The position numbers and the translations under genes were made by a program. A stretch of 60,939 nt of DNA, the filler included, from Nemertoderma westbladi (lineage: Eukaryota; Animalia; Xenacoelomorpha): NCBI GenBank assembly GCA_032718475.1. It is 3 parts of 3 records of this genome, joined end to end, with 100 filler letters (N's around TTAATTAATTAA, not from the genome) between each part and the next. Parts side by side here need not be neighbours in the genome. Positions count along the whole stretch, not along the records: positions 1 to 21,663 come from JAUCBJ010003665.1; 2 more parts are not named here. One strand, written 5' to 3'. Below the pieces are notes generated by a model. The model made no database searches, had not been told where the DNA came from, and saw only the letters and a list, made by a program, of their open reading frames with translations. Below, one piece after another: positions 6,104 through 49,969 of the stretch (the stretch's first letter is position 1; each line of letters opens with the position of its first letter).

Positions 6104-6627
6104 TAGGTCCTGCGACATTAGCATTAGGTCAGGTGACATTAGGTCCTGAGACATTATGTCCTGAGACATTATGTCCTGAGACATTATGACCTGAGACATT
6201 ATATCCTGAGACATTATGTCCTGAGACATTATGTCCTGAGACATTATGTCCTGAGACATTATGTCCTGAGACATTATGTCCTGAGACATTATGTCCTGAG
6301 ACATTATGTCCTGAGACATTATGTCCTGAGACATTATGTTCTGAGACATTATGTCCTGAGACATTATGTCCTGAGACATTATGTCCTGAGACATTATGTC
6401 CTGAAACATTATGTCCTGAGACATTATGTCCTGAGACATTATGTCCTGAGACATTATGTCCTGAGACATTATGTCCTGAGACATTATGTCCTGAGACATT
6501 ATGTCCTGAGGCACTAGGTCCTGAGACATTAGGTCTTGAGACATTAGGTCCTGAGACATTAGGTCCTGCGAAATTAGGTCCTGAGATATTGGGTCCTGTG
6601 ACATTAGTTCCTGAGACATTAGGTCCA
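6104..6627. repeat. 15-bp tandem array (GTCCTGAGACATTAT)n, about 34 copies
   Basis: Directly visible, with a homogeneous core and degenerate edges. It produces the spurious SQDIM/SGHNV ORFs. Confidence 0.95.
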
Positions 6628-7063: not shown

Positions 7064-8457
7064 AGTGACACCGAACCCAGGACCTCACTGTTAGAGTAAC
7101 GGCCACACCGCCAGTGACACCGAACCCGGGACCTCCCTGTTAGAGTAACGGCCACACCGCCAGTGACACCGAACTCGGGACCTCCCTGTTAGAGTAACGG
7201 CCACACCGCCAGTGACACCGAACCCGGGACCTCCCAGTTAGAGTAACGGCCACACCGCCAGTGACACCGAACCCAGGACCTCCCAGTTAGAGTAACGGCC
7301 ACACCGTCAGTGACACCGAACCCAGGACCTCCCTGTTAGAGTAACGGCCACACCGCCAGTGACACCGAACCCGGGACCTCCCAGTTAGAGTAACGGCCAC
7401 ACCGCCAGTGACACCGAACCCGGGACCTCCCTGTTAGAGTAACGGCCACACCGCCAGTGACACCGAACCCGGGACCTCCCAGTTAGAGTAACGGCCACAC
7501 CGCAAGTGACACCGAACCCGGGACCTCCCAGTTAGAGTAACGGCCACACCGCCAGTGACACCGAACCCGGGACCTCCCAGTTAGAGTAACGGCCACACCG
7601 CCAGTGACACCGAACCCGGGACCTCCCAGTTAGAGTAACGGCCACACCGCCAGAGAAAACCGAACCCGGGACCTCCCAGTTAGAGTAACGGCCACACCGC
7701 CAGTGACACCGAACCCGGACCTCCCAGTTAGAGTAACGGCCACATCGCCAGTGACACCGAACCAGGGCCTCCCAGTTAGAGTAACGGCCACACCGCCAGT
7801 GACACCGAACCCGGGACCTCCCTGTTAGAGTAACGGCCACACCGCCAGTGACAACCGAACCCGGGACCTCCCAGTTAGAGTAACGGCCACACCGCCAGTG
7901 ACACCGAACTCGGGACCTCCCTGTTAGAGTAACGGCCACACCGCCAGTGACACCGAACCCGGGACCTCCCTGTTAGAGTAACGGCCACACCGCCAGTGAC
8001 ACCGAACCCGGGACCTCCCAGTTAGAGTAACGGCCACACCGCCAGTGACACCGAACCCGGGACCTCCCAGTTAGAGTAACGGCCACATCGCCAGTGACAC
8101 CGAACCCGGGACCTCCCAGTTAGAGTAACGGCCACATCGCCAGTGACACCGAACCCAGGACCTCCCAGTTAGAGTAACGGCCACACCGCCAGTGACACCG
8201 AACCCGGGACCTCCCAGTTAGAGTAACGGCCACATCGCCAGTGACACCGAACCCAGGACCTCCCAGTTAGAGTAACGGCCACACCGCCAGTGACACCGAA
8301 CCCGGGACCTCCCTGTTAGAGTAACGGCCACACCGCCAGTGACACCGAACCCGGGACCTCCCAGTTGGAGTAACGGCCACACCGCCAGTGACACCGAACT
8401 CGGGACCTCCCTGTTAGAGTAACGGCCACACCGCCAGTGACACCGAACCCAGGACCT
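7064..8457. repeat. 49-bp tandem array, about 28 copies
   Basis: Unit AGTGACACCGAACCCGGGACCTCCCAGTTAGAGTAACGGCCACACCGCC repeated head-to-tail with no spacers. Confidence 0.95.
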
Positions 8458-9155: not shown

Positions 9156-10739
9156 TTAAACAGTAAGAAGAATCGAGTAAATCTCTGAAACATTCCCTAC
9201 AATGTCCGGAACTCGAGTCTTTAGGGCCAAGTTGACGGTGCGAGAGCCGGGCGACACTTTAATCTCGCCGAGCACCCAAATCCCGTTGCTCAACTTCAAC
9301 GAGGTGTAAATCATCTCGAACTGCTCCCCGACCTGTCGGCGCGCCACAATAAATATATTATTCTGTCGCAACTGCGTCGACGACTCGACTAGGTGTTCCA
9401 CATGGGCGTTCTCCACCGTGTGTTGCGTCTCGTTCGCGCTCGGCATATCTTTCCAGGTCTCTAGGAATACTTTACGCTCCATATCGCCATCCTCTGTGAA
9501 GAGAACGTGGGTCGGAACGAGAGTCGACATGTAGAAAACATCGATGTTATTCTTTATCGCGATCTGGAGATTCATAATCGGTTCCATCCGTTGAACAACT
9601 CCGTTTAGATTCAACGGTAGACTGGTTTCTACGCTCTGGTTGGGTGGAAGCGGCGCCGATATCTGTAAACCCGTGGCCGGAAGTAGCCCGAAGCTGTTCT
9701 TATTAAACTGTATCGCGAAGCCGCCCATAGCCTGCATCGCGCGGTTCGTAAAGGTCAGATCCATAAAGATCTGGCCTTGGCGTCTCGCGAAGGTGCCGCC
9801 AACCTCTAGGCCTTTCCCTTTGGCGGCGGGGAGCCAGACCTCCTTGGGGGGAGTATATACGGATTGGCTGCCCCCCAAGCCGGGGAGACCCAGCCCGAAA
9901 ATATCCCCGAGGTCGCTGAGCGGGAGACTGGCGGCCGAGTCGATGGGGACCCCGCCGCCTAACAACGAGTCGCCCCCCAGCAGGTCGAACACGCCGCCCC
10001 CCGTGGAGGGGGGCGCGGGGGGCCCCAGCATGGTGTCGGGGGGGCCCAGACTCAACGACAACAGATCCTCGACGGCCCCCTGGGCCGCCTCCGCCGTAGG
10101 AATAACCGATCCCGAGACATCCGGGAGAGCTGTAGCTTGATCTCCTTGGGAATCCACCTTGGACGGTAAAACGGCTCGTTTAATCCCCATTCGGCCTTCT
10201 ACGAAGGAAGTCGGAGGTTTATGATAAACGCTCGCTAACGAACCTATATGACAGATAAGTTCGTCTAAAAGCGTCGGTTCTAGTAAGTCCGTCTCCTCCG
10301 ATATCAACGGCTTCTCGGCCAAGACGACCTCCTTAGCCGCGGCCGGATCCGTCGACAGGAGTCGCCAATAGATGTAGCCCCGGTCCCTAAGGTCCGGGTT
10401 GTCGCTCTCCTGCGTGGAGAGACTCAGCACCTGCTGCACCAACTCCTGGGTGTCCGACGGCCGCTTAAGGAACAGCTTCACGATCGATGTCAGCAACTGC
10501 AGTTGCACCTGAACGCTCTCGTCCGAGAATCCCTCTAGGAAACTCTCCAGTAATTCGTCCGCGTTATCGATTCGCTCCGCGTACTCCCCTATTATCCATA
10601 TCATCGCGGCTCTCGCTTCCGGTTCGTCCAAGGTGTCGAGATTCTCGCACAAAGTCGATATTATACTCTCGTATTTGTTGGGATATTTCCGGAATATATC
10701 CTTAATGACGACGATGGCTTCCTGTACGACGTAGTTCAC
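9156..10739 (-). CDS. AP1B1: AP-1/AP-2 complex beta subunit (beta-adaptin), exon 2 (trunk end, hinge, appendage)
   Basis: VNYVVQEAIVVIKDIFRKYPNKYES...DNPDLRDRGYIYWRLLSTDP...WLPAAKGKGLEV... Acceptor is tttacag|GTG at 10740/10739, phase 0. Confidence 0.95.
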   Translation of the reverse strand: MNYVVQEAIVVIKDIFRKYPNKYESIISTLCENLDTLDEPEARAAMIWIIGEYAERIDNADELLESFLEGFSDESVQVQLQLLTSIVKLFLKRPSDTQELVQQVLSLSTQESDNPDLRDRGYIYWRLLSTDPAAAKEVVLAEKPLISEETDLLEPTLLDELICHIGSLASVYHKPPTSFVEGRMGIKRAVLPSKVDSQGDQATALPDVSGSVIPTAEAAQGAVEDLLSLSLGPPDTMLGPPAPPSTGGGVFDLLGGDSLLGGGVPIDSAASLPLSDLGDIFGLGLPGLGGSQSVYTPPKEVWLPAAKGKGLEVGGTFARRQGQIFMDLTFTNRAMQAMGGFAIQFNKNSFGLLPATGLQISAPLPPNQSVETSLPLNLNGVVQRMEPIMNLQIAIKNNIDVFYMSTLVPTHVLFTEDGDMERKVFLETWKDMPSANETQHTVENAHVEHLVESSTQLRQNNIFIVARRQVGEQFEMIYTSLKLSNGIWVLGEIKVSPGSRTVNLALKTRVPDIVGNVSEIYSILLTV

Positions 10740-10864
10740 CTGTAAATTTTAAATCAATAAATTTTCTGACAAAGGATATACACCAACTCCCGTAATACAA
10801 CAACGATATTTAGGGGGTCGGAGCCAACCACCCCCAACCCCCCCTCCCCCTAATTAAGTTTCCA

Positions 10865-11148
10865 CCTTGGTGTAGTGGTCGCATTGAATTCACATCTCCC
10901 GTAGGTCGTGGGTTCGATCCTCACATGGGCCAGGGCAGTTTTCGTTTCGGCACGAATGCTTTAAAGGGACCAGCCAGGGCGCATCTCTGCCTTGCATCCT
11001 TAAGTAGGTATATAGCTAAATGAGTACTAGAGTTTCCTCTGGGGGAGTAAAGTCTTCTGGGGGGACCGCACTGGAAATAAGTCGTCCGACGTTGTGCGTA
11101 ATCCCTGGCCTAGCGGCCGAAGAAAATTTACTTTCTTTTACTTTACTG
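10865..11148 (+). mobile_element. tRNA-derived SINE inside the beta-adaptin intron
   Basis: A-box TGGTGTAGTGG (10868) and B-box GGTTCGATCC (10911). The central GCCTTGCATCCTT...AAATGAGTAC resembles Nin/Deu-type SINE cores. Tail is (TTTAC)-like. Confidence 0.65.
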
Positions 11149-11325
11149 TTAATTTTGTTTTCAAATTTCAATAAAATGCTACGAAATTTATTATGAAGAT
11201 AGTTCGACAACTTTTCATACTGCTGGCCCGCCCGGCACAACAACCCGCTGAAAATGCCCATTTAGCAATACGGTAGCAGGCTTTATTCTTCGTATTTGGA
11301 ATGTAATCTAAATATAATGAGAAAA

Positions 11326-14300
11326 CTTGGTTTGTATGAGATCCAGTAAGGTAAACACACTCACCTTGGTTTGTATTAGATCCAGTAAGGTTGAGACACA
11401 CTTACCTTGGTTTGTATTAGATCCATTAAGGTTGAGACACACTTACCTTGGTTTGTATGAGATCCAGTAAGGTTGAGACACACTTACCTTGGTTTGTATG
11501 AGATCCAGTAAGGTTGAGACACACTTACCTTGGTTTGTATTAGATCCATTAAGGTTGAGACACACTTACCTTGGTTTGTATGAGATCCAGTAAGGTTGAG
11601 ACACACTTACCTTGGTTTGTAATAGATCCAGTAAGGTTGAGACACACTTACCTTGGTTTGTATTAGATACAGTAAGGTTGAGACACACTTACCTTGGTTT
11701 GAATTAGATACAGTAAGGTTGAGACACACTTACCTTGGTTTGTATTAGATCCAGTAAGGTTGAGAGACACTTACCTTGGTTTGTATTAGATCCAGTAAGG
11801 TTGAGACACACTTACCTTGGTTTGTATTAGATCCAGTAAGGTTGAGACACACACTTACCTTGGTTTGTAATAAATCCAGTAAGGTTGAGAAACACTTACC
11901 TTGGTTTGTATTAGATCCAGTAAAGTTGAGACACACTTACCTTGGTTTGTATTAGATCCAGTAAAGTTGAGACACACTTACCTTGGTTTGTATTAGATCC
12001 AGTAAGGTTGAGAAACACTTACCTTGGTTTGTATTAGATCCAGTAAAGTTGAGACACACTTACCTTGGTTTGTATTAGATCCAGTAAGGTTGAGAAACAC
12101 TTACCTTGGTTTGTATTAGATCCAGTAAAGTTGAGACACACTTACCTTGGTTTGTATTAGATCCAGTAAAGTTGAGACACACTTACCTTGGTTTGTATTA
12201 GATCCAGTAAAGTTGAGAAACACTTACCTTGGTTTGTATTAGATCCAGTAAAGTTGAGACACACTTACCTTGGTTTGTATTAGATCCAGTAAGGTTGAGA
12301 AACACTTACCTTGGTTTGTAATAAATCCAGTAAGGTTGAGACACACTTACCTTGGTTTGTATGAGATCCAGTAAAGTTGAGACACACTTACCTTGGTTTG
12401 TATTAGATCCAGTAAGGTTGAGACACACTTACCTTGGTTTGTATTAGATACAGTAAGGTTGAGACACACTTACCTTGGTTTGTATTAGATCCAGTAAGGT
12501 TGAGAGACACTTACCTTGGTTTGTATGAGATCCAGTAAGGTTGAGACACACTTACCTTGGTTTGTATTAGATCCAGTAAGGTTGAGAGACACTTACCTTG
12601 GTTTGTATGAGATCCAGTAAGGTTGAGAGACACTTACCTTGGTTTGTATTAGATCCAGTAAGGTTGAGAAACACTTACCTTGGTTTGTAATAAATCCAGT
12701 AAGGTTGAGAAACACTTACCTTGGTTTGTATTAGATCCAGTAAGGTTGAGACACACTTACCTTGGTTTGTATTAGATCCAGTAAGGTTGAGAGACACTTA
12801 CCTTGGTTTGTATGAGATCCAGTAAGGTTGAGAGACACTTACCTTGGTTTGTATTAGATCCAGTAAGGTTGAGAAACACTTACCTTGGTTTGTAATAAAT
12901 CCAGTAAGGTTGAGACACACTTACCTTGGTTTGTATGAGATCCAGTAAGGTTGAGACACACTTACCTTGGTTTGTATTAGATCCAGTAAGGTTGAGACAC
13001 ACTTACCTTGGTTTGTATTAGATCCATTAAGATTGAGACACACTTACCTTGGTTTGTATTAGATCCAGTAAGGTTGAGACACACTTACCTTGGTTTGTAT
13101 GAGATCCAGTAAGGTTGAGACACACTTACCTTGGTTTGTATGAGATCCAGTAAGGTTGAGACACACTTACCTTGGTTTGTATGAGATCCAGTAGGGTTGA
13201 GACACACTTACCTTCGTTTGCATGAGATCCAGTAAGGTTGAGACACACTTACCTTGGTTTGTATTAGATCCGGTAAGGTTGAGAGACACTTACCTTGGTT
13301 TGTATTAGATCCAGTAAGGTTGAGAAACACTTACCTTGGTTTGTAATAAATCCAGTAAGGTTGAGACACACTTACCTTGGTTTGTATGAGATCCAGTAAA
13401 GTTGAGACACACTTACCTTGGTTTGTATTAGATCCAGTAAGGTTGAGACACACTTACCTTGGTTTGTATTAGATCCTGTAAGGTTGAGACACACTTACCT
13501 TGGTTTGTAATAAATCCAGTAAGGTTGAGACACACTTACCTTGGTTTGTATGAGATCCAGTAAAGTTGAGACACACTTACCTTGGTTTGTATTAGATCCA
13601 GTAAGGTTGAGACACACTTACCTTGGTTTGTATTAGATACAGTAAGGTTGAGACACACTTACCTTGGTTTGTATTAGATCCAGTAAGGTTGAGAGACACT
13701 TACCTTGGTTTGTATGAGATCCAGTAAGGTTGAGAGACACTTACCTTGGTTTGTATTAGATCCAGTAAGGTTGAGAAACACTTACCTTGGTTTGTAATAA
13801 ATCCACTAAGGTTGAGAAACACTTACCTTGGTTTGTATTAGATCCAGTAAGGTTGAGAGACACTTACCTTGGTTTGTATGAGATCCAGTAAGGTTGAGAC
13901 ACACTTACCTTGGTTTGTATTAGATCCAGTAAGGTTGAGACACACTTACCTTGGTTTGTATTAGATCCATTAAGGTTGAGACACACTTACCTTGGTTTGT
14001 ATTAGATCCAGTAAGGTTGAGAAACACTTACCTTGGTTTGTAATAAATCCAGTAAGGTTGAGACACACTTACCTTGGTTTGTATGAGATCCAGTAAAGTT
14101 GAGACACACTTACCTTGGTTTGTATTAGATCCAGTAAGGTTGAGACACACTTACCTTGGTTTGTATTAGATCCAGTAAGGTTGAGACACACTTACCTTGG
14201 TTTGTATTAGATCCAGTAAGGTTGAGACACACTTACCTTGGTTTGTATTAGATACAGTAAGGTTGAGACATACTTACCTTGGTTTGTATGAGATCCAGTA

Positions 14301-17300
14301 AGGTTGAGACACACTTACCTTGGTTTGTATTAGATCCAATAAGGTAGAAACACACTTACCTTGTTTTGTATTAGATACAGTAAGGTTGAGACACACTTAC
14401 CTTGGTTTTGTATTAGATCCAGTAAGGTTGAGACACACTTACCTTGGTTTGTATTAGATCCATTAAGGTTGAGACACACTTACCTTGGTTTGTATTAGAT
14501 ACAGTAAGGTTGAGACACACTTACCTTGGTTTGTATTAGATACAGTAAGGTTGAGACACACTTACCTTGGTTTGTATTAGATCCAGTAAGGTTGAGAGAC
14601 ACTTACCTTGGTTTGTATTAGATCCAGTAAGGTTGAGACACACTTACCTTGGTTTGTATGAGATCCAGTAAGGTTGAGACACACTTACCTTGGTTTGTAT
14701 GAGATCCAGTAAGGTTGAGACACACTTACCTTGGTTTGTATTAGATCCAGTAAGGTTGAGAAACACTTACCTTGGTTTTGTATTAGATCCAGTAAGGTTG
14801 AGACACACTTACCTTGGTTTGCATGAGATCCAGTAAGGTTGAGACACACTTACCTTGGTTTGTATGAGATCCAGTACGGTTGAGACACACTTACCTTGGT
14901 TTGTATTAGATACAGTAAGGTTGAGACATACTTACCTTGGTTTGTATGAGATCCAGTAAGGTTGAGACACACTTACCTTGGTTTGTATCAGATACAGTAA
15001 GGTTGAGACACACTTACCTTGGTTTGTATTAGATCCTGTAAGGTTGAGACACACTTACCTTGGTTTGTATTAGATCCAGAAAGGTTGAGACACACTTACC
15101 TTGGTTTGTATTAGATCCAGCAAGGTTGAGAGACACATACCTTGGTTTGTATTAGATCCAGTAAGGTTGAGACACACTTACCTTGGTTTGTATTAGATCC
15201 AGCAAGGTTGAGACACACTAACCTTGCTTTGTATTAGATCCAGTAAGGTTGAGACATACTTACCTTGGTTTGTATTAGATCCAGCAAGGTTGAGACACAC
15301 TTACCTTGGTTAGTATTAGATCCAGCAAGTTTGAGAAACACTTACCTTGGTTTGTATTAGATCCAGTAAGGTTGAGACACACTTACCTTGGTTTGTATTA
15401 GATCCAGTAAGGTTGAGACACACTTACCTTGGTTTGTATTAAATCCAGTAAGGTTGAGACACAATTACCTTGGTTTTGTATTAGATCCAGTAATGTTGAG
15501 ACACACTTATCTTGGTTTGTATTAGATACAGTAAGGTTGAGACACACTTACCTTGGTTTGTATTAGATCCAGTAAGGTTGAGACACACTTACCTTGGTTT
15601 GTATTAGATCCAGTAAGGTTGAGACACACTTATCTTGGTTTGTATTAGATACAGTAAGGTTGAGACACACTTACCTTGGTTTGTATTAGATCCAGTAAGG
15701 TTGAGACACACTTACCTTGGTTTGTATTAGATCCAATAAGGTAGAAACACACTTACCTTGTTTTGTATTAGATACAGTAAGGTTGAGACACACTTACCTT
15801 GGTTTTGTATTAGATCCAGTAAGGTTGAGACACACTTACCTTGGTTTGTATTAGATCCTGTAAGGTTGAGAAACACTTACCTTGGTTTGTATTAGATACA
15901 GTAAGGTTGAGACACACTTACCTTGGTTTGTATTAGATCCAGCAAGGTTGAGACACACTTACCTTGGTTTGTATTAGATCCATTAAGGTTGAGACACACT
16001 TACCTTGGTTTGTATTAGATCCAGTAAGGTTGAGACACACTTACCTTGGTTTGTATGAGATCCAGTAAGGTTGAGACACACTTACCTTGGTTTGTATGAG
16101 ATCCAGTAAGGTTGAGACACACTTACCTTGGTTTGTATGAGATCCAGTAGGGTTGAGACACACTTACCTTGGTTTTGTATTAGATCCAGTAAGGTTGAGA
16201 CACACTTACCTTGGTTTGCATGAGATCCAGTAAGGTTGAGACACACTTACCTTGGTTTGTATTAGATCCAGTAAGGTTGAGACACACTTACCTTGGTTTG
16301 TATTAGATCCAGTAAGGTAGACATTAACCTTGGTTTGTATTAGATCCAGAAAGGTTGAGACACACTTACCTTGGTTTGTATTAGATCCAGCAAGGTTGAG
16401 AGACACTTACCTTGGTTTGTATTAGATCCAGTAAGGTTGAGACACACTTACCTTGGTTTGTATTAGATCCAGCAAGGTTGAGACACACTAACCTTGCTTT
16501 GTATTAGATCCATTAAGGTTGAGATACACTTACCTTGGTTTGTATTAGATCCAGCAAGGTTGAGACACACTTACCTTGGTTTGTATTAGATCCAGCAAGT
16601 TTGAGAGACACTTACCTTGATTTGTATTAGATCCAGCAAGTTTGAGAGACACTTACCTTGATTTGTATTAGATCCAGTAAGGTTGAGACACACTTACCTT
16701 GGTTTGTATTAGATCCAGTAAGGTTGAGACACACTTACCTTGGTTTGTATTAAATCCAGTAAGGTTGAGACACAATTACCTTGGTTTTGTATTAGATCCA
16801 GTAATGTTGAGACATAGTTACCTTGGTTTGTATTAGATACAGTAAGGTTGAGACACACTTACCTTGGTTTGTATTAGATTCAGTAAGGTTGAGACACACT
16901 TACCTTGGTTTGTATTAGATCCAGTAAGGTAGAAACACACTTACCTTGTTTTGTATTAGATACAGTAAGGTTGAGACACACTTACCTTGGTTTGTATTAG
17001 ATCCATTAAGATTGAGACACACTTACCTTGGTTTGTATTAGATCCAGTAAGGTTGAGACACACTTACCTTGGTTTGTATGAGATCCAGTAAGGTTGAGAC
17101 ACACTTACCTTGGTTTGTATGAGATCCAGTAAGGTTGAGACACACTTACCTTGGTTTGTATGAGATCCAGTAGGGTTGAGACACACTTACCTTGGTTTTG
17201 TATTAGATCCAGTAAGGTTGAGACACACTTACCTTCGTTTGCATGAGATCCAGTAAGGTTGAGACACACTTACCTTGGTTTGTATTAGATCCAGTAAGGT

Positions 17301-18624
17301 TGAGACACACTTACCTTGGTTTGTATTAGATCCAGTAAGGTTGAGACACACACTTACCTTGGTTTGTATTAGATCCAGTAAGGTTGAGACACACTTACCT
17401 TGGTTTGTATGAGATCCAGTAAGGTAGACACTTACCTTGGTTTGTATTAGATCCAGAAAGGTTGAGACACACTTACCTTGGTTTGTATTAGATCCATTAA
17501 GGTTGAGACACACTTACCTTGGTTTGTATTAGATCCAGTAAGGTTGAGACACACTTACCTTGGTTTGTATTAGATCCAGTAAGGTTGAGACACACACTTA
17601 CCTTGGTTTGTATTAGATCCATTAAGGTTGAGACACACTTACCTTGGTTTGTATTAGATCCAGTAAGGTTGAGACACACTTACTTTGGTTTGTATTAGAT
17701 CCAGTAAGGTTGAGACACAATTACCTTGGTTTGTATTAGAACCAGTAAGGTTGAGACACACTTACCTTGGTTTGTATTAGATCCATTAAGGTTGAGACAC
17801 ACTTACCTTGGTTTGTATTAGATCCAGTAAGGTTGAGACACACTTACCTTGGTTTGTATTAGATCCAGTAAGGTTGAGACACACACTTACCTTGGTTTGT
17901 ATTAGATCCAGTAAGGTTGAGACACACTTACCTTGGTTTGTATTAGATCCAGTAAGGTTGAGACACACTTACCTTGGTTTGTATTAGATCCAGTAAGGTT
18001 GAGACACACTTACCTTGGTTTGTATTAGATCCAGTAAGGTTAAGACACACTTACCTTGGTTTGTATTAGATCCAGTAAGGTTGAGACACACTTACCTTGG
18101 TCTGTATGAGATCCAGTAAGGTTGAGACATACTTACCTTGGTTTGTATGAGATCCAGTAAGGTTGAGACACACTTACCTTGGTTTGTATTAGATCCAGTA
18201 AGGTTGAGACACACTTACCTTGGTTTGTATTAGATCCAGTAAGGTTGAGACACACTTACCTTGGTTTGTATTAAATCCAGTAAGGTTGAGACACACTTAC
18301 CTTGGTTTGTATGAGATCCAGTAAGGTTGAGACACACTTACCTTGGTTTGTATTAGATACAGTAAGGTTGAGACACACTTACCTTGGTTTGTATTAGATC
18401 CAGTAAGGTTGAGACACACTTACCTTGGTTTGTATTAGATCCAGTAAGGTAGACACACTTACCTTGGTTTGTATTAGATCCAGTAAGGTTGAGACACACT
18501 TACTTTGGTTTGTATTAGATCCAGTAAGGTTGAGACACACTTACCTTGGTTTGTATTAGATCCAGTAAGGTTGAGACACACTTACCTTGGTTTGTATGAG
18601 ATCCAGTAAGGTAGACACACACTT
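11326..18624 (-). repeat. 41-bp tandem array (about 178 copies) of the beta-adaptin exon-1 3' end plus 5' splice site
   Basis: Minus-strand unit is GTAAGTGTGTCTCAACCTTACTGGATCTAATACAAACCAAG. It contains the codons for (C)[11 protein letters not shown] and AAG|GTAAGT. Confidence 0.97.
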
Positions 18625-19794
18625 CTCAGCCGACTGTTCCACCTTTATCGCACACCGTCCGATCGCGCGAACCGACTTCCTAACGAAGTCGACATCCACC
18701 TCAGTAGCGTACTCCTTGAGTTCGGCCAACACCTGCGTGATGTTCGACTGGTTCGCCAACCTAATCATAATATCCAACTTCTCAAGCTTCACGTAGATGG
18801 GGTCGTTGTACTTCACGAAGAAAACCTTCATCTCCTGTTTGAGAATCTCCGGTCGTTTCTGCACGATTAGGTTGATATTCCGTAACGCGATATACTGTAT
18901 CTCCGGCTCGCCGCTCAACAGGGTCACCAACGGCGGGGCCAACTTCTTTATTAAACCCTGGAAGAAGTCAGTAGAGGAATCCATGACCTCCATGAACTTC
19001 ATGATTCCTTTAACCGCTGAGAGAACCACCGCGGAATTAGTGTGACACAACCGAGGAAGGATTCTCTCGCAGATACTCTGGGCGTCTCGGTCGTCTTTGG
19101 GGTTGTAAGTGGCGAGGGAATCCAAGATAAACACCTGCCCCCATTCGGTGCACTCGTTCAACGCGGTAATCAACTTATTAACTGTCTGGGAATTGTTGAT
19201 TTGATGGAGATCTTGATTGGGAGATGCGTCGTTTATCTCGGACAAGGCGGCCACAGCGTTGGCTACCACCATAGGGTTGGAGTCGGTCAGCATATCCTTG
19301 AGTTGATCTAGGAAGCCTTGATCCTCTACTAATTGGTTGTTAATATCGTAGAGTTTAGCAACGCTAACAGCAGCTGTCTTCCTCACATATGGGTCCTCGT
19401 CTCTCAAGCACTTCCTCAGCGGTTCGCACAGATATTCAGTGATCTTATCTACGCGAATACAACCCATGGTTCGCACAGCCAGCGCTCTAATCAGCGGGTT
19501 CTGATCTTCGCAATCCTTTACAAAGGTATTCACAGCCATAATGGCCATATCGGGTTGCGATTTCGCGTAGCTCATAAGATACAGATAAACGAGTTTCTTT
19601 AACTCAATGTTGTCCGTTTGCATGCAGTTAACCACATCTGGAAACAGTTGAGAGACATCTTTACCTATCGTCATAGATGCGATAACCTTCTTAACTGCTT
19701 CTTTCTTTTTTTCTTTCTTATCGCTATTTAATTCGGATTTTAATTCAAATATTTCGCCTTTCTTTGTTGTTGTAAAATATTTTGAATCCGTCAT
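18586..19794 (-). CDS. AP1B1: AP-1/AP-2 complex beta subunit (beta-adaptin), exon 1 (403 codons)
   Basis: [42 protein letters not shown]...[12 protein letters not shown], donor AAG|gtaagt at 18586/18585. Joins exon 2 as QTK|VNYVV for 930 aa in total. Confidence 0.96.
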
Positions 19795-21663: not shown

Positions 21664-21763
21664 NNNNNNNNNNNNNNNNNNNNNNNNNNNNNNNNNNNNN
21701 NNNNNNNTTAATTAATTAANNNNNNNNNNNNNNNNNNNNNNNNNNNNNNNNNNNNNNNNNNNN
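21664..21763. other. Artificial contig spacer N44-TTAATTAATTAA-N44
   Basis: Exactly 100 nt with a six-frame stop linker, identical to 51139-51238. Confidence 0.95.
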
Positions 21764-24471
21764 GGGGGTTGATTGGGGTAGGCAGCGACGCCCGCTCGCC
21801 TAAATATAAACTCATTATAATATGGTTAAACTCATATATAGCAGATATGACGGAGTTGATAGAAGATGGTCTTGGTATCGGGGAGCGATATACTCTACTT
21901 TTGCAAGCGTTTGTTGATAGCTTAATACGCGGCGACGTTAGTCCAACTGCTGCGGAGGACGATGGTCGTTATATCGAACCGCCAATGTCCCAAGTGCAGC
22001 TCTCGCGAGAGTTAGACTATAGAAAATTCGCTGCTCGATATACGCAGCGTAATGGTACGTATATGGGCTTCTTAACTACTGGTCATTCTATCAATTTACA
22101 CAATACGGACTATGTCGACTATATATCCTGCCCAGCGGAGTCGGAAACATAAACTGAAATTCGAATGCGAAAATTCTATTCGAAATCGGCTCGAAAGAAA
22201 AGACATTAAAGAAACAAATAAACGCGGTAACTCCAACATATATTTGGAATTCTTGATAGAAGCATTGTAACAACAAATAAGTATCATCCGCGTTTCCCCT
22301 ACCAGACGTGCGTCTTTGGTATTATTACGGTAAATGCCCTAGACCTAGCCAATAAACGGAAAGACATAAACATCCACGGAAACGTTGTGTTAAACACAGT
22401 TGTGTTCGTTATATTTACTGGAGTTTCGAGCGAAACTTGTTTGACGTATCACCTATGCTCACTCGGCTCTAACGATCCTAGAGTAAACCTACGATCAGAG
22501 TCCCGGAATACTCGGTCAAACCTCCTCATTCCTTAGTTGGACCTCAGACCTGTGATCCTGGTGGTGTCGCGGATCCTCGCGGACGGTATTCACTGTTCAA
22601 GATCTAGTGCTACCCTAATAATTAATCGGTAACACTCCGACAGTGATTTCTAGCTAGCCGCCCATCTTACCTAGCCGGATTATGACGCAGACACCTAATA
22701 TCACTATCCAACCGTATGGTCGTCCCGTTTAACGCGATACAACCCTTCATCAAGGTGAAGGAGAGCGTTGTACGAAACGAGTTAAACGCTATTCTATAAA
22801 GATCAAAAAGAAACCTGCGTTTGTTCAGATAAACGTAAGTTACAACAGTAAGTCCAATCGATAAACAAATTGGCCTTATCTCAGTTCGATTGGGAAACCT
22901 CGAATCTCAAAGAAGATATCAAGCTTAGAAAACCCTATTCTCTGCGAGAGTTTTGGACGAACGTATCCCATGACAAGCGGAGGAAAATCAGCTCGAGGAG
23001 AAGCATATCGAAATAGACGAGACACCGACCGTAAACCCAAACCTTTTAATGCAATCATATTGCACCCTTCACCCAGGAGTTATGGCCCTCCTAGTAAAGT
23101 GGCTTCCCCCAAAGAGAAAATGACTCTTGCTAGCTTCAAGAAACTGCGTAAACGCCGTCCGCGCAAGAAAGACTAACTGTTTAGAGTATTTTTATATTTT
23201 AGAAACTGTGATTTTGTATATTTTATAGACTTAAATCCCATTTTCTGGGAGCGGTGTAAAAGCTTTTGTGGGATAACTGATTCGTTTGCCTTGTTGGCCA
23301 GTTCCCCCCCGGTCGCTAGAATACTCTAAAGGGGATCTATAGTTAAAATAGTGCAAGCTACCAACTTATTGGCTGATTTGCTGTACGCAGGTATCTGGGC
23401 TCTGTTTAATCAGCCAACCAGCCTAGGAAGGTTGCGTCATAGCCTTGTTTTTGTATCTCCCAATAGAATTTGAGTTAGCCTTGATTTTGACCTATCACAG
23501 AGCTACTGAACTGAAATTTTCCTATCTCACTGCTCTTTCTCTGTGTTGAACGGGAGCTTCGTGGAATAAGGGTAGTTGGTATCCTCGTATAGAGCAGTAG
23601 TCACGAGTTTTTCAAAGCCACGAAAGAACGGCTTTTTAGTGTTTTGTGCTTTCTGCTTTTTAGCTCAACACTAGTAGGTTTAATTATAAGGACATATATC
23701 CTTTAACTCATGGAATCACTGCAATTTCGTAATCACTGGCGGCTGTGAATATCACACGGCTTTTAATAACTGCTGCTAAAAATTACCTGCTCAATCAATA
23801 CTGTATACTGCTATTTGTTGTCGGTTATTCATTATATTTGTTGATGAATTATTATATTGGAATAACGAGAAATAACCCCGAAAACCCAATATTCTTGATA
23901 TACCGAAGGTAAGAGAGAAAGGTTATCAATAACGATTGTGACTTATGTTAAAGTGGTTTGAAGTGAATCTAATGTTATTTGATAGACCCTACATGAGTCA
24001 GTCTGTGTTCCTTTTATATGTGACTAAAATCAGTGAAGATTGGCAGATTAGTGTGCAGTATTGTGCAGCATTGTGTATGAGTGAGTCTGTTAAAGAAGCA
24101 ATTCCTAAAGAATGCGCCATATATGTGAATTATAATTAAGCCATATCGTTGTGAGTAGTTTAAGTCATAACTCTGTTTATATAGATAAAGCGCCACGTCC
24201 TAAAGGAACTGTTAATATTCCCGAAGGTGAATAATATTGTCAGAGATTATATAATACTGTCAGTCGAATAATACATTAGGCTTACATAGCAATAAAATTA
24301 AACCGTCGAACCCAATCTCCCGGGAATATCCAGCGGGTGAATGATCGCGCACAGATTGGTTTCTACTAGTGTAGTGAATCAAATACTTGTCATAGGCTAA
24401 AAAGCGATTTAATATCTAGAAGACATCTTAATTTGGCGGATTAAACTGCCAAAGGTCTGAAAGCGCGAACA
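21764..24471 (+). mobile_element. Possible 3' end of a decayed LTR retroelement abutting the satellite
   Basis: Coding-like but broken sequence ends ...KLRKRRPRKKD*. A purine tract AAAGGGGA lies at about 23328 and AATAAA at 24291. The block ends ...GAACA exactly at the array edge. No diagnostic domain was recognised. Confidence 0.25.
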
Positions 24472-27400
24472 TAAGGTTAGTCAGATAATTACAGACGAGA
24501 CGCGGGATCAGCTAAAGTTAGTTAGATAATTACAGACGCGACGCGAGATCAGCTAAGGTTAGTCAGATAATTACAGACGAGACGCGGGTTCAGCTAAGGT
24601 TAGTCAGATAATTACAGACGAGACGCGAGATCAGCTAAGGTTAGTCAGATAATTACAGGACGAGACGCGGGATCAGCTAAGGTTAGTTAGATAATTACAG
24701 ACGAGACGCGAGATCAGCTAAGGTTAGTCAGATAATTACAGGACGAGACGCGGGATCAGCTAAGGTTAGTCAGATAATTACAGGACGAGACGCGGGATCA
24801 GCTAAGGTTAGTCAGATAATTACAGGACGAGACGCGAGATCAGCTAAGGTTAGTTAGATAATTACAGACGAGACGCGGGATCAGCTAAGGTTAGTTAGAT
24901 AATTACAGACGCGACGCGAGATCAGCTAAGGTTAGTTAGATAATTACAGACGCGACGCGAGATCAGCTAAGGTTAGTCAGATAATTACAGGACGAGACGC
25001 GGGATCAGCTAAGGTTAGGCAGATAATTACAGGACGAGACGCGGGATCAGCTAAGGTTAGGCAGATAATTACAGGACGAGACGCGAGATCAGCTAAGGTT
25101 AGTTAGATAATTACAGACGAGACGCGGGATCAGCTAAGGTTAGTTAGATAATTACAGACGCGACGCGAGATCAGCTAAGGTTAGTCAGATAATTACAGAC
25201 GAGACGCGAGATCAGCTAAGGTTAGTCAGATAATTACAGGACGAGACGCGGGATCAGCTAAGGTTAGGCAGATAATTACAGGACGAGACGCGAGATCAGC
25301 TAAGGTTAGTTAGATAATTACAGACGAGACGCGGGATCAGCTAAGGTTAGTTAGATAATTACAGACGCGACGCGAGATCAGCTAAGGTTAGTCAGATAAT
25401 TACAGACGAGACGCGGGATCAGCTAAAGTTAGTCAAATAATTACAGACGAGACGCGAGATCAGCTAAGGTGAGTTAGATAATTACAGGACGAGACGCGAG
25501 ATCAGCTAAGGTTAGTTAGATAATTACAGGACGAGACGCGGGATCAGCTAAAGTTAGTCAAATAATTACAGACGAGATGCGAGATCAGCTAAGGTGAGTT
25601 AGATAATTACAGGACGAGACGCGAGATCAGCTAAGGTTAGTCAGATAATTACAGACGCGACGCGAGATCAGCTAAGGTTAGTCAGATAATTACAGGACGA
25701 GACGCGGGATCAGCTAAGGTTAGTCAGATAATTACAGACGAGACGCGGGATCAGCTAAGGTTAGTCAGATAATTACAGGACGAGACGCGGGATCAGCTAA
25801 GGTTAGTCAGATAATTACAGACGAGACGCGGGATCAGCTAAAGTTAGTCAAATAATTACAGACGAGACGCGAGATCAGCTAAGGTGAGTTAGATAATTAC
25901 AGGACGAGACGCGAGATCAGCTAAGGTTAGTTAGATAATTACAGACGAGACGCGGGATCAGCTAAGGTTAGTTAGATAATTACAGACGCGACGCGAGATC
26001 AGCTAAGGTTAGTCAGATAATTACAGGACGAGGCGCGGGATCAGCTAAGGTTAGTCAGATAATTACAGACGCGACGCGAGATCAGCTAAGGTTAGTCAGA
26101 TAATTACAGGACGAGGCGCGGGATCAGCTAAGGTTAGTCAGATAATTACAGACGCGACGCGAGATCAGCTAAGGTTAGTCAGATAATTACAGGACGAGAC
26201 GCGGGATCAGCTAAGGTTAGTCAGATAATTACAGGACGAGGCGCGGGATCAGCTAAGGTTAGTCAGATAATTACAGACGAGACGCGGGATCAGCTAAGGT
26301 TAGTCAGATAATTACAGACGAGACGCGAGATCAGCTAAGGTTAGTCAGATAATTACAGACGCGACGCGGGATCAGCTAAGGTTAGTCAGATAATTACAGA
26401 CGAGACGCGGGATCAGCTAAGGTTAGTCAGATAATTACAGACGAGACGCGGGATCAGCTAAGGTTAGTCAGATAATTACAGACGAGACGCGAGATCAGCT
26501 AAGGTTAGTTAGATAATTACAGACGAGACGCGGGATCAGCTAAGGTTAGTTAGATAATTACAGACGCGACGCGAGATCAGCTAAGGTTAGTCAGATAATT
26601 ACAGACGCGACGCGAGATCAGCTAAGGTTAGTTAGATAATTACAGACGCGACGCGAGATCAGCTAAGGTTAGTCAGATAATTACAGACGCGACGCGAGAT
26701 CAGCTAAGGTTAGTCAGATAATTACAGGACGAGGCGCGGGATCAGCTAAGGTTAGTCGGATAATTACAGACGCGACGCGAGATCAGCTAAGGTTAGTCAG
26801 ATAATTACAGGACGAGGCGCGGGATCAGCTAAGGTTAGTCAGATAATTACAGACGAGACGCGAGATCAGCTAAGGTTAGTTAGATAATTACAGACGAGAC
26901 GCGGGATCAGCTAAGGTTAGTTAGATAATTACAGACGCGACGCGAGATCAGCTAAGGTTAGTCAGATAATTACAGACGCGACGCGAGATCAGCTAAGGTT
27001 AGTTAGATAATTACAGGACGAGACGCGAGAACAGCTAAGGTTAGTCAGATAATTACAGACGCGTCGCGAGATCAGCTAAGGTTAGTCAGATAATTACAGG
27101 ACGAGGCGCGGGATCAGCTAAGGTTAGTCAGATAATTACAGACGAGACGCGGGATCAGCTAAGGTTAGTCAGATAATTACAGACGCGACGCGAGATCAGC
27201 TAAGGTTAGTCAGATAATTACAGGACGAGGCGCGGGATCAGCTAAGGTTAGTCAGATAATTACAGACGAGACGCGAGATCAGCTAAGGTTAGTTAGATAA
27301 TTACAGACGAGACGCGGGATCAGCTAAGGTTAGTTAGATAATTACAGACGAGACGCGAGATCAGCTAAGGTTAGTTAGATAATTACAGACGAGACGCGGG

Positions 27401-30400
27401 ATCAGCTAAGGTTAGTTAGATAATTACAGACGAGACGCGGGATCAGCTAAGGTTAGTTAGATAATTACAGACGAGACGCGGGATCAGCTAAGGTTAGTCA
27501 GATAATTACAGGACGAGACGCGGGATCAGCTAAGGTTAGGCAGATAATTACAGACGCGACGCGAGATCAGCTAAGGTTAGTCAGATAATTACAGGACGAG
27601 GCGCGGGATCAGCTAAGGTTAGTCAGATAATTACAGACGAGACGCGAGATCAGCTAAGGTTAGTTAGATAATTACAGACGAGACGCGGGATCAGCTAAGG
27701 TTAGTCAGATAATTACAGACGCGACGCGAGATCAGCTAAGGTTAGTCAGATAATTACAGACGAGACGCGGGATCAGCTAAGGTTAGTCAGATAATTACAG
27801 ACGCGACGCGAGATCAGCTAAGGTTAGTCAGATAATTACAGGACGAGGCGCGGGATCAGCTAAGGTTAGTCAGATAATTACAGACGAGACGCGAGATCAG
27901 CTAAGGTTAGTTAGATAATTACAGACGAGACGCGGGATCAGCTAAGGTTAGTCAGATAATTACAGACGCGACGCGAGATCAGCTAAGGTTAGTCAGATAA
28001 TTACAGGACGAGGCGCGGGATCAGCTAAGGTTAGTCAGATAATTACAGACGAGACGCGAGATCAGCTAAGGTTAGTTAGATAATTACAGACGAGACGCGA
28101 GAACAGCTAAGGTTAGTTAGATAATTACAGGACGAGACGCGGGATCAGCTAAGGTTAGTTAGATAATTACAGACGCGACGCGAGATCAGCTAAGGTTAGT
28201 CAGATAATTACAGGACGAGACGCGGGATCAGCTAAGGTTAGTCGGATAATTACAGACGCGACGCGAGATCAGCTAAGGTTAGTCAGATAATTACAGGACG
28301 AGGCGCGGGATCAGTTAAGGTTAGTCAGATAATTACAGACGAGACGCGAGATCAGCTAAGGTTAGTTAGATAATTACAGACGAGACGCGGGATCAGCTAA
28401 GGTTAGTTAGATAATTACAGACGAGACGCGGGATCAGCTAAGGTTAGTCAGATAATTACAGACGCGACGCGAGATCAGCTAAGGTTAGTTAGATAATTAC
28501 AGGACGAGACGCGAGAACAGCTAAGGTTAGTCAGATAATTACAGACGCGACGCGAGATCAGCTAAGGTTAGTTAGATAATTACAGGACGAGACGCGAGAA
28601 CAGCTAAGGTTAGTCAGATAATTACAGACGCGTCGCGAGATTAGCTAAGGTTAGTCAGATAATTACAGGACGAGGCGCGGGATCAGCTAAGGTTAGTCAG
28701 ATAATTACAGACGAGACGCGGGATCAGCTAAGGTTAGTCAGATAATTACAGGACGAGGCGCGGGATCAGCTAAGGTTAGTCAGATAATTACAGACGAGAC
28801 GCGGGATCAGCTAAAGTTAGTTAGATAATTACAGACGAGACGCGGGATCAGCTAAGGTTAGTCAGATAATTACAGACGCGACGCGAGATCAGCTAAGGTT
28901 AGTTAGATAATTACAGGACGAGACGCGAGAACAGCTAAGGTTAGTCAGATAATTACAGACGCGTCGCGAGATCAGCTAAGGTTAGTCAGATAATTACAGG
29001 ACGAGGCGCGGGATCAGCTAAGGTTAGTCAGATAATTACAGACGAGACGCGGGATCAGCTAAGGTTAGTCAGATAATTACAGACGCGACGCGAGATCAGC
29101 TAAGGTTAGTCAGATAATTACAGGACGAGGCGCGGGATCAGCTAAGGTTAGTCAGATAATTACAGACGAGACGCGAGATCAGCTAAGGTTAGTTAGATAA
29201 TTACAGACGAGACGCGGGATCAGCTAAGGTTAGTTAGATAATTACAGACGCGACGCGAGATCAGCTAAGGTTAGTCAGATAATTACAGACGCGACGCGAG
29301 ATCAGCTAAGGTTAGTTAGATAATTACAGACGCGACGCGAGATCAGCTAAGGTTAGTCAGATAATTACAGACGCGACGCGAGATCAGCTAAGGTTAGTTA
29401 GATAATTACAGGACGAGACGCGAGAACAGCTAAGGTTAGTCAGATAATTACAGACGCGTCGCGAGATCAGCTAAGGTTAGTCAGATAATTACAGGACGAG
29501 CGCGGGATCAGCTAAGGTTAGTCAGATAATTACAGACGAGACGCGGGATCAGCTAAGGTTAGTCAGATAATTACAGACGCGACGCGAGATCAGCTAAGGT
29601 TAGTCAGATAATTACAGGACGAGGCGCGGGATCAGCTAAGGTTAGTCAGATAATTACAGACGAGACGCGAGATCAGCTAAGGTTAGTTAGATAATTACAG
29701 ACGAGACGCGGGATCAGCTAAGGTTAGTTAGATAATTACAGACGCGACGCGAGATCAGCTAAGGTTAGTCAGATAATTACAGACGCGACGCGAGATCAGC
29801 TAAGGTTAGTTAGATAATTACAGGACGAGACGCGAGAACAGCTAAGGTTAGTCAGATAATTACAGACGCGTCGCGAGATCAGCTAAGGTTAGTCAGATAA
29901 TTACAGACGCGTCGCGAGATCAGCTAAGGTTAGTCAGATAATTACAGGACGAGACGCGAGAACAGCTAAGGTTAGTTAGATAATTACAGACGAGACGCGG
30001 GATCAGCTAAGGTTAGTTAGATAATTACAGACGCGACGCGAGATCAGCTAAGGTTAGTCAGATAATTACAGACGCGTCGCGAGATCAGCTAAGGTTAGTC
30101 AGATAATTACAGGACGAGACGCGAGAACAGCTAAGGTTAGTTAGATAATTACAGACGAGACGCGGGATCAGCTAAGGTTAGTCAGATAATTACAGGACGA
30201 GACGCGGGATCAGCTAAAGTTAGTCAGATAATTACAGGACGAGACGCGGGATCAGCTAAGGTTAGTCAGATAATTACAGGACGAGACGCGGGATCAGCTA
30301 AGGTTAGTCAGATAATTACAGGACGAGGCGCGGGATCAGCTAAGGTTAGTTAGATAATTACAGACGAGACGCGGGATCAGCTAAGGTTAGTTAGATAATT

Positions 30401-32568
30401 ACAGACGAGACGCGGGATCAGCTAAGGTTAGTTAGATAATTACAGACGCGACGCGAGATCAGCTAAGGTTAGTCAGATAATTACAGGACGAGACGCGGGA
30501 TCAGCTAAGGTTAGTCAGATAATTACAGGACGAGGCGCGGGATCAGCTAAGGTTAGTTAGATAATTACAGACGAGACGCGGGATCAGCTAAGGTTAGTTA
30601 GATAATTACAGACGCGACGCGAGATCAGCTAAGGTTAGTCAGATAATTACAGGACGAGACGCGGGATCAGCTAAGGTTAGTCAGATAATTACAGACGAGG
30701 CGCGGGATCAGCTAAGGTTAGTCAGATAATTACAGACGAGACGCGAGATCAGCTAAGGTTAGTTAGATAATTACAGACGAGACGCGGGATCAGCTAAGGT
30801 TAGTTAGATAATTACAGACGCGACGCGAGATCAGCTAAGGTTAGTCAGATAATTACAGACGCGACGCGAGATCAGCTAAGGTTAGTTAGATAATTACAGA
30901 CGCGACGCGAGATCAGCTAAGGTTAGTTAGATAATTACAGACGCGACGCGAGATCAGCTAAGGTTAGTCAGATAATTACAGGACGAGGCGCGGGTTCAGC
31001 TAAGGTTAGTCAGATAATTACAGACGCGACGCGAGATCAGCTAAGGTTAGTCAGATAATTACAGGACGAGGCGCGGGATCAGCTAAGGTTAGTCAGATAA
31101 TTACAGACGAGACGCGAGATCAGCTAAGGTTAGTTAGATAATTACAGACGAGACGCGGGATCAGCTAAGGTTAGTTAGATAATTACAGACGAGACGCGGG
31201 ATCAGCTAAGGTTAGTCAGATAATTACAGACGCGTCGCGAGATCAGCTAAGGTTAGTTAGATAATTACAGACGCGACGCGAGATCAGCTAAGGTTAGTTA
31301 GATAATTACAGACGCGACGCGAGATCAGCTAAGGTTAGTCAGATAATTACAGACGCGTCGCGAGATCAGCTAAGGTTAGTCAGATAATTACAGGACGAGA
31401 CGCGAGAACAGCTAAGGTTAGTTAGATAATTACAGACGAGACGCGGGATCAGCTAAGGTTAGTCAGATAATTACAGGACGAGACGCGGGATCAGCTAAAG
31501 TTAGTCAGATAATTACAGGACGAGACGCGGGATCAGCTAAGGTTAGTCAGATAATTACAGACGAGACGCGGGATCAGCTAAGGTTAGTCAGATAATTACA
31601 GGACGAGGCGCGGGATCAGCTAAGGTTAGTTAGATAATTACAGACGAGACGCGGGATCAGCTAAGGTTAGTTAGATAATTACAGACGCGACGCGAGATCA
31701 GCTAAGGTTAGTCAGATAATTACAGGACGAGACGCGGGATCAGCTAAGGTTAGTCAGATAATTACAGACGAGACGCGGGATCAGCTAAGGTTAGTTAGAT
31801 AATTACAGACGCGACGCGAGATCAGCTAAGGTTAGTCAGATAATTACAGACGCGACGCGAGATCAGCTAAGGTTAGTCAGATAATTACAGGACGAGACGC
31901 GGGATCAGCTAAGGTTAGTCAGATAATTACAAACGAGACGCGGGATCAGCTAAAGTTAGTCAGATAATTACAGACGAGACGCGGGATCAGCTAAGGTTAG
32001 TCAGATAATTACAGGTCGAGACGCGGGATCAGCTAAGGTTAGTCAGATAATTACAGGACGAGACGCGGGATCAGCTAAGGTTAGTCAGATAATTACAGAC
32101 GAGACGCGGGATCAGCTAAGGTTAGTCAGATAATTACAGGTCGAGACGCGGGATCAGCTAAGGTTAGTCAGATAATTACAGGACGAGACGCGGGATCAGC
32201 TAAAGTTAGTCAGATAATTACAGGACGAGACGCGAGAACAGCTAAGGTTAGTCAGATAATTACAGACGCGACGCGAGATCAGCTACGGTTAGTCAGATAA
32301 TTACAGGACGAGACGCGGGATCAGCTAAGGTTAGTCAGATAATTACAGACGAGACGCGAGATCAGCTAAGGTTAGTTAGATAATTACAGGACGAGACGCG
32401 GGATCAGCTAAGGTTAGTTAGATAATTACAGGACGAGACGCGGGATCAGCTAAAGTTAGTCAGATAATTACAGGACGAGACGCGGGATCAGCTAAGGTTA
32501 GTCAGATAATTACAGGTCGAGACGCGGGATCAGCTAAGGTTAGTCAGATAATTACAGGTCGAGACGCG
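24472..32568 (+). repeat. 41/42-bp tandem array (about 195 copies) of an EHD exon end plus 5' splice site
   Basis: Unit GTTAGTCAGATAATTACAG(G)ACGAGACGCG(A/G)GATCAGCTAAG. GCG AGA TCA GCT AAG|gttagt reads ARSAK, matching EHD RARLAK|VHAYII. The next exon begins VHSYII. Confidence 0.9.
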
Positions 32569-35832: not shown

Positions 35833-35967
35833 AATCTACTGCGTAAAATCGACTTCTCCTCTCTAAATAAACTGGATAAATTTAAGTTGAATAAAGTTGA
35901 CCAAATGTTATCCAATGAGATTGGCTACTTGATGAGTAGAATTCACCAGGAAGAACAGGACCCCAAT
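35833..35967 (+). CDS. EHD1: EHD-family protein, internal exon
   Basis: ttgcag|NLLRKIDFSSLNKLDKFKLNKVDQMLSNEIGYLMSRIHQEEQDPN|gtgagt matches EHD ELL...DFSKF..LKPKLL..VDDMLANDIARLM..VRQEE. Confidence 0.85.
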
Positions 35968-49892: not shown

Positions 49893-49969
49893 TTTAAGCT
49901 CCACTCGTTCAAAATATTCACCAGTTTAAGGCTTTAAGCCTACTGTATTCCGAACGATAACGAATAAAC

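Follow-up and report, generated by a model that had tools for sequence, protein, structure and literature searches.

Well-documented natural cases of new spliceosomal introns are few, and a beta-adaptin gene of Nemertoderma westbladi (Xenacoelomorpha) raises the question of whether its intron is one of them. The gene lies on the minus strand of a window of 60,939 nucleotides (nt) from assembly GCA_032718475.1, which consists of three parts of three records joined end to end with 100 filler letters between one part and the next; positions count along this whole stretch. The coding sequence is interrupted once, by an intron that consists for the greater part of tandem copies of the end of the preceding exon. 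An earlier note, made from the sequence alone, had proposed that this intron was born from tandem duplication of coding sequence. Minisatellites that span a splice boundary are a known kind of structure, and birth of the present intron is a good candidate but unproven: judged from the sequence, there is about an even chance that the first repeat copy of the intron arose with the intron itself, in a birth assisted by duplication.

The gene, its intron and the repeat array

The minus-strand coding sequence was identified as beta-adaptin and comprises 930 codons over two intact open frames:

18586-19794, minus strand: coding exon 1, open frame of 403 codons from the ATG at 19794 to ...LIQTK, with Adaptin_N over residues 1-390
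10740-18585, minus strand: intron, 7,846 base pairs (bp) between the two coding exons
9156-10739, minus strand: coding exon 2, open frame of 527 codons plus the stop at 9156, starting VNYVVQE

Exon 1 matched the Pfam family Adaptin_N (PF01602, E 1.4e-116). Exon 2 matched the C-terminal part of the same family (4.4e-37), Alpha_adaptinC2 (PF02883, 4.1e-15) and B2-adapt-app_C (PF09066, 6.7e-25), so that the protein has the trunk and the two appendage sub-domains of a beta-adaptin. The product of exon 1 is 87% identical to insect beta-adaptins. Protein searches gave no match from a close relative, identity being at most 87% in exon 1 and 65% in exon 2; P0247, the top match of one search, was discarded as a relative because it is a sturgeon model in which a part is duplicated. 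The coding sequence has no second intron, and for that part of the gene the earlier claim of a single intron holds. The neighbouring furin-like gene has several exons. No marks of a retrocopy, including a poly(A) tract, were seen when the flanks of the gene were inspected by eye.

A single array was delimited by Tandem Repeats Finder (TRF) at 11326-18624 (period 41, 178.0 copies, 94% matches, score 12937), and is made of an exonic and an intronic part:

18586-18624, minus strand: copy that opens the array and stands in the exon, covering the final 39 nt of exon 1; the TRF array extends to its end at 18624
11326-18585, minus strand: 177 intronic repeat units, head to tail, 7,260 bp or 92.5% of the intron

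The intron had earlier been drawn from 10740 to 18624. Since the first unit of the array is the end of the exon, position 18624 falls inside exon 1, and 18586-18624 had to be removed from the intron. Unit length was 41 bp in 151 of the 178 segmented units, the exon copy included. The consensus unit consists of GT followed by the last 39 nt of exon 1 with three changes (36/39 identical), which bears out the proposal that the repeat is derived from the exon; beyond the 39 exon nt it holds only the GT, and no sequence belonging to the intron alone. The common unit contains a stop in frame. Within the window the 41-bp unit was found nowhere outside the array. Blocks of several units recur along it (for example units 33-37, 58-62, 92-96 and 131-134), as would be expected of the residue of unequal exchange.

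The splice sites were located as follows:

18580-18585, minus strand: working donor GTAAGT, formed by GT and the AAGT that opens the next copy
10740-10746, minus strand: acceptor tttacag, assigned from the sequence and from a contig of run X3 whose fit stops at 10741 and passes to the end of exon 1

The contig of run X3 (1,787 nt, word depth 1,045) showed 0 differences over 463 nt (10279-10741) before continuing with the end of exon 1. It reads ...ACCAAG|GTGAAC (AAG|GTG), and this one contig therefore joins the most upstream donor to the tttacag acceptor, which stands before GTGAAC as previously described. The contig probably derives from RNA, no run being recorded as such, since its depth far exceeds that of a single-copy locus in a DNA run of 142 million letters. 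Splicing from any donor further along the array would lengthen the message by 41 nt and then meet a stop after nine codons (VSVSQPYWI).

The donor in use, AAG|GTAAGT, is the junction of two tandem copies, as had been predicted: at +3 to +6 it carries the AAGT of the exon itself. AAG|GT followed by AAGT was found in 166 units, and AAG|GTGA followed by GTGTGT in the distal unit, the last of the array. The donor thus comes from a duplicated AG|GT junction.

That the array length, or the whole locus, is not that of a working gene, because of an assembly artefact or a dead gene copy, is hardly credible. The scaffold does contain N runs at about 21690-21765, and long arrays are difficult to assemble. 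Against this, both frames are intact over the 930 codons with all three domain families present, a high-depth contig joins the exons precisely and without differences, and the variant units and recurring blocks look like those of a real array. The scaffold gap itself, upstream of the beta-adaptin start by about 1.9 kb, has N runs interrupted by TTAATTAATTAA.

The distal unit and the acceptor side

Two segments at the 3' end of the intron bear on its origin, together with an element lying within the second of them:

11326-11364, minus strand: distal unit, 39 nt, the only unit that starts with GTGAGT; it ends in ACCAAG and has the exon-like TCT/TTT-ACC and CTCATA
10740-11325, minus strand: the intron's 3' part beyond the array, 586 bp of repeat-family DNA unrelated to the unit and to the exon
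10856-11157, plus strand: high-copy interspersed element, SINE-like (SINE, short interspersed nuclear element), with approximate ends, placed in the 586-bp part by a depth peak, loose ends and joints

The sequence of the distal unit, up to its terminal ACCAAG, is as the earlier note had written it. The unit carries the exon states at three sites where the common unit departs from them, and reads in frame without a stop. The GTGA that had been named as an ancestral mark is peculiar to it, GTAAGT occurring 166 times in the array and GTGAGT once, in the distal unit. The second such mark, CTCATA, is not, having 32 exact occurrences along the array against 109 of CTAATA. The exon-like TCTACC has 7 occurrences against 151 of TCTCAACC.

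The earlier note had proposed a tree of units to test whether the distal unit is the closest to the exon, and this is borne out only in part. By ungapped distance it is not the closest, since it has 4 differences from the exon and 19 other units have 2; compared with GTGA followed by the last 35 exon bases, it is identical at 38 of 39 positions. GTGA also opens exon 2, so that AGGTGA precedes both the distal copy and exon 2, flanking the distal copy and the 586 bp together.

The acceptor, the T-rich tract and any branch site all lie inside the 586 bp, which resembled the unit and the two exons no more than the median of shuffled sequences did. No second copy of this part was found in the window, no terminal inverted repeats, and no match to a tRNA or an Rfam family. 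In runs X1 and X3, contigs numbering in the thousands fit positions ~10760-11330 with a likeness of 80-99%. On the stretch 9156-11330, 2,918 contigs of run X1 were placed, with the maximum of depth over ~10835-11126. Contig joints bypass the inner element, passing from 10825 or 10833 to 11158, and loose ends occur at 10860 and at 11126-11134. The inner part thus looks like an interspersed element inserted into DNA that is in turn a member of a repeat family. The element had been called a SINE. No tRNA was found in it by ARAGORN or Rfam, and the grounds for the name are therefore its high copy number and motifs, box-like as judged by eye. Of two runs from other organisms in one study, X6 gave only two 47-nt pieces and X7 nothing, a lack of cover being no evidence either way.

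Directly after the distal unit stands TTTTCT, in which no relic of a donor is seen. Repeat-family DNA of 586 bp would suit an introner-like origin, yet a segment starting with TTTTCT has no donor of its own.

These observations are consistent with a birth of the intron in which a break at AAG^GTGA would have been repaired with a short upstream coding copy and captured DNA, in one event or in two. Duplication of the last 35-39 coding bases together with GT(GA) would have created the donor, and ~280 bp of unrelated DNA placed at AAG^GTG the acceptor. The repair would have left AGGTGA at both edges of the insert, and its product, AAG|GTGAGT ... tttacAG|GTGAAC, would have been spliceable at once. 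The interspersed element would have inserted afterwards into the captured DNA. The two adjacent copies could then have grown to 178 through unequal exchange, a derived variant (GTAAGT, an inserted CA and CTAATA) spreading through the array and the edge copy remaining as a relic, with the most upstream donor in use. A distal copy of 39 nt that keeps the frame fits what the first duplication would have produced.

In this account the junction of copies explains the donor and the foreign DNA flanked by AGGTGA explains the acceptor, with no loss to be assumed; we consider it just as apt to be right as wrong. Its most specific form falls a little short of that: a single repair at AAG^GTGA in an intronless coding sequence may have copied 35 coding bases, captured about 280 bp, doubled AGGTGA, made a strong donor (AAG|GTGAGT) together with an acceptor, and left two copies that seeded the array. 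Hexapods and one further lineage would each have been hit separately at the same AAG|GT boundary, which would mark it as a proto-splice site used repeatedly.

The statement that no foreign DNA was needed could not be upheld, the acceptor side being situated in unrelated repeat-family DNA. Since the acceptor lies inside the foreign 586 bp, the simple AG|GT model, with exon 2 directly after the last copy, does not fit. Gain of an intron by tandem duplication of an exon piece containing AGGT, the Rogers model, is treated by Hellsten et al. (2011; PMC3265369). If it had acted alone, duplication of the AGGT piece would have made both splice sites, and the 586 bp would have entered later at the exact 3' junction. 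The donor-side evidence is the same as for a birth assisted by captured DNA, and a 39-nt duplication in frame is an insertion of 13 residues, possibly tolerated before splicing began. Such a course is nonetheless very improbable. An intron of 39-41 nt would lie below the minimum of ~60 nt quoted in PMC3265369, the 3' end of the copy (CAAACCAAG) has no pyrimidine tract, and the later insertion must strike a 39-nt target exactly at its last position and also supply a working acceptor.

Other boundary arrays and the QTK|VNY position

Minisatellite arrays make up ~40% of the 60.9-kb window, and two others also span splice boundaries:

52164-55952, plus strand: furin-like comparison array, 40 bp x 90 at 52164-55735, before the furin-like exon at 55757-55952
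35833-39576, plus strand: EHD-like comparison array, an exon at 35833-35967 followed by a 27 bp x 134 array (35952-39576)

The unit of the furin-like array consists of the intron's pyrimidine tract, AG and the opening ~18 nt of the exon that starts at 55757; this exon matches furin from residue 175 (E 4.8e-18), and the exon upstream of it matches Peptidase_S8. The array is located upstream of the real acceptor at 55755-55756. Both of its edge units have the exon-like form GGGGAAC, and the edge unit compared by eye with the true boundary shows ~1 mismatch in 33. The unit of the EHD-like array is made of the last 16 exon nt and GTGAGTTCCTT; the DUF5600 match of its exon is weak and below the cut-off, and the old intron continues beyond the last unit. 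The seeds of both arrays are marked by short direct repeats of 8-9 nt. Since both units hold clear intron sequence (11-20 nt), these two introns predate their arrays.

The beta-adaptin array could have been formed in the same manner. An older intron, inherited or acquired before by some other route, with its own donor before the 586-bp part, would have had a 41-bp piece (39 exon nt and GT) duplicated and expanded; donors made at the copy junctions upstream would have replaced the old donor, which would have decayed or been deleted. We hold such a secondary origin to be possible, though on the evidence it falls on the doubtful side. Arrays of this kind are known from amphioxus, where they are called "mirages" (PMC3087553), and from human F7, 6-16, CBS, LMNB2 and PDGF (PMC1557585). 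The arrays just described, the large share of minisatellite in the window and the exon-like edge units of the furin-like array speak for it as well, as do the weak donors with T at +3 that occur in the window, GTTCGT after the furin-like exon and GTTAGT in the array at about 24.5 kb, and the introns found at the same position in five hexapod-like loci (see below).

Several features of the beta-adaptin array are difficult to reconcile with a secondary origin. The right breakpoint must fall just 2-4 nt inside the intron, and the unit has nothing beyond the exon except GT. Three changes (A to G, one GT lost, C to T) must have gathered where the distal unit begins, at its 5' junction, with none in the other 24 nt. 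The old donor must have been lost, leaving TTTTCT, though the edges of the neighbouring arrays are ~97% preserved. Finally, it leaves unexplained why the sole coding intron stands at a site unused by vertebrates, mites, Drosophila and copepod- or Daphnia-like sequences.

The window has further features of its own. A second 41-bp array at 24472-32568 (196 copies, 8.1 kb), upstream of the beta-adaptin start, has a unit with the donor-like AAG|GTTAGT and the acceptor-like TTACAG; its flanks are faintly unit-like and no exon could be linked to it. Immediately downstream of the beta-adaptin stop there are two arrays that may belong to its 3' untranslated region, at 6135-6626 (15 bp x 33) and 7064-8457 (49 bp x 28). 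The EHD-like unit is a multiple of three in length, and long stretches of that array are open in the exon frame (DPNVSSLEQ...), the frame shifting along it; this array may be intron or coding repeat. Open frames at 40101-41388 (minus) and 45427-46433 (plus) resemble, by eye, reverse-transcriptase or endonuclease parts of the long interspersed nuclear element (LINE) type, with a FADD motif. At 49122-49925 (minus) a single open frame of 267 codons appears by eye to be like a hydrolase of the haloacid-dehalogenase type.

The position of the intron, between QTK and VNY, was compared with that in other organisms, for which intron positions were deduced from fragments of open reading frames (ORFs), gene models and metagenome DNA. 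A metagenome scan gave 80 loci, and the 14 of these with at least one intron are the genomic loci counted here. The earlier note had named an ancient, repeat-free QTK|VNY intron in other species as the finding that would overturn its proposal, and this was encountered in part. Five of the 14 have a canonical GT..AG intron of 67-158 nt exactly at QTK|VNY, with no exon-derived repeat: four (L042-L045) are nearest to a springtail protein and one (L014) to ant proteins. The position is therefore not unique to the lineage of the window. The remaining nine read through QTK-VNY (three mite-like, one copepod-like, one Daphnia-like and four protist-like). ORFs identical to a Drosophila protein run from Met1 to ...EGFQ with no intron at the site, and mite ORFs break at AIK|V and not at QTK|VNY.

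In mis-spliced vertebrate models and in the sturgeon model, boundaries fall near AIK(VE)|QSAE and behind YPNK, and QTK-VNY is read without a break, from which it would appear that vertebrates have no intron there, in agreement with the earlier expectation. The European Nucleotide Archive (ENA) cluster P0057 and three of its members (P0241-P0243), on contigs of up to 6.3 kb, have an intron-free frame from Met1 to QTK, after which homology is lost exactly. The tail is variable and non-homologous, with Ala and not Val as its first residue, and would fit a non-GT donor, perhaps GC. A 93% relative of the cluster, P0088, reads through to ...ICHI. The cluster was placed with chordates by FastTree.

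Some of the loci showed other features. The springtail-like genes have further introns after FVK, PMV, EAR and ATQ. Loci L028, L030 and L033 (10-49 kb, nearest to an eriophyid-mite protein) carry beta-adaptin-like genes with no intron in the covered part, and the proteins matching them, P0035-P0047, end early at ~640 residues with ...LVTRLDLIEL.

Shared inheritance of the intron with hexapods depends on where the window protein belongs. On a long branch it grouped with anthozoans, outside the arthropods in both trees, with Shimodaira-Hasegawa-like (SH-like) support of 91 (FastTree, 68 rows) and 61 (IQ-TREE, 24 rows); this grouping has weak support and does not place the organism. Forcing it together with hexapods cost 26 log-likelihood units (approximately unbiased (AU) test, p 0.054). 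Among diagnostic residues 7 are anthozoan-only and 1 is arthropod-only, and RGYIYW has a non-arthropod Tyr. To judge from these comparisons the window protein is probably not a hexapod one, and for that reason independent use of the AAG|GT site is the more likely source of the hexapod intron than shared inheritance, although this is not settled.

The results of this section, together with some of those above, weigh against a birth of the intron by duplication and captured DNA. The acceptor side does not come from duplication, so that the textbook model alone does not fit, and one must suppose either that foreign DNA was set precisely into the junction or that a single, complex event took place. 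The same window often shows boundary-spanning arrays in introns that were there before, which gives a secondary origin a high base rate, and an ancestral-looking edge unit is a property of arrays, at least of the furin-like one, and therefore no proof of intron birth. GTGA is near the general donor consensus, and a slip in the GT repeat could yield a unit of 39 nt. Repeat-free introns occur at QTK|VNY in 5 of the 14 genomic loci, and P0057 also breaks there. Placing the window protein among arthropods is not rejected by the AU test (0.8 log-likelihood units, p 0.48), and the hexapod placement escapes rejection just barely. The copy number of the array comes from one assembly only.

Relation to known systems

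Duplication of a coding AG|GT junction is the feature that the beta-adaptin intron has in common with the Rogers model of PMC3265369: the donor stands at the duplicated junction and the intron begins with a copy of the upstream exon. In that model the duplicate comprises both splice sites and the whole intron. In beta-adaptin neither the acceptor nor the remainder of the intron is the duplicate (at most the final AG may come from the duplicated AGGTGA), the acceptor side is unrelated, and the duplicate was multiplied 177-fold. An intron in potato's gene for RdRp (RNA-dependent RNA polymerase) arose through tandem duplication (Ma et al. 2016; PMC4974935); there too the signals are of mixed origin and the donor comes from formerly exonic sequence. 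Its other signals were taken from a duplicated parental intron, whereas those of beta-adaptin lie in unrelated repeat-family DNA. In Drosophila, regions at proto-splice sites were duplicated in tandem and novel intron positions arose from this (Lehmann et al. 2010; PMC2891723). The proto-splice site in a conserved coding sequence and the intronisation of one duplicate copy are common to both; the Drosophila cases, unlike the present one, were dated with 12 related genomes.

The beta-adaptin donor can be traced base by base to the junction of duplicated coding sequence, and the edge copy shows what was likely the first product. In Daphnia, new introns with short flanking direct repeats reportedly came from the repair of staggered breaks. 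These gains share with the present intron a direct repeat flanking the insert (here the 6-nt AGGTGA) and foreign filler DNA. If the two beta-adaptin exons were once contiguous, local duplication and captured DNA together can build an intron.

The closest counterparts among minisatellites are found in man and in amphioxus. Intron 7 of human F7 carries a variable number tandem repeat (VNTR) of 37 bp, and 6-16, CBS, LMNB2 and PDGF are further examples (Borensztajn et al. 2006; PMC1557585). As in beta-adaptin, the first F7 unit spans the boundary between exon and donor, a ladder of identical donors results, and the most upstream donor is used (in beta-adaptin, according to one contig). The F7 unit consists of 4 exon and 33 intron nt and belongs to a pre-existing intron, whereas the beta-adaptin unit has 39 exon nt and 2 more; copy numbers are 5-9 in F7 and 178 in beta-adaptin. 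If the beta-adaptin intron is older than its repeats, it is the largest example so far of a known and mostly harmless kind of repeat, and even then it offers a natural ladder of 177 spare donors for the study of donor choice.

The "mirage" minisatellites of amphioxus, in Adh3 and in the globin genes BflGb6 and BflGb9, were proposed by their authors to be a way in which new introns can arise (Ebner et al. 2010; PMC3087553). Like these mirages, and like the F7 repeat, the beta-adaptin array is a head-to-tail intronic array whose first unit lies across the exon-intron boundary. Boundary copies stand in tandem within the intron, normal splicing is kept, and the inner units are homogenised while those at the edge escape. 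The globin mirages have 3-6 units, and beta-adaptin has 177 units over 7.3 kb. The beta-adaptin array differs further in that its unit has no part belonging to the intron alone, and so holds no sequence of a pre-existing intron, and in that it occupies the sole coding intron of the gene. If the intron was indeed born with its first repeat copy, it would link the common boundary-spanning minisatellites to intron gain, a connection as yet put forward only for the amphioxus globins (PMC3087553).

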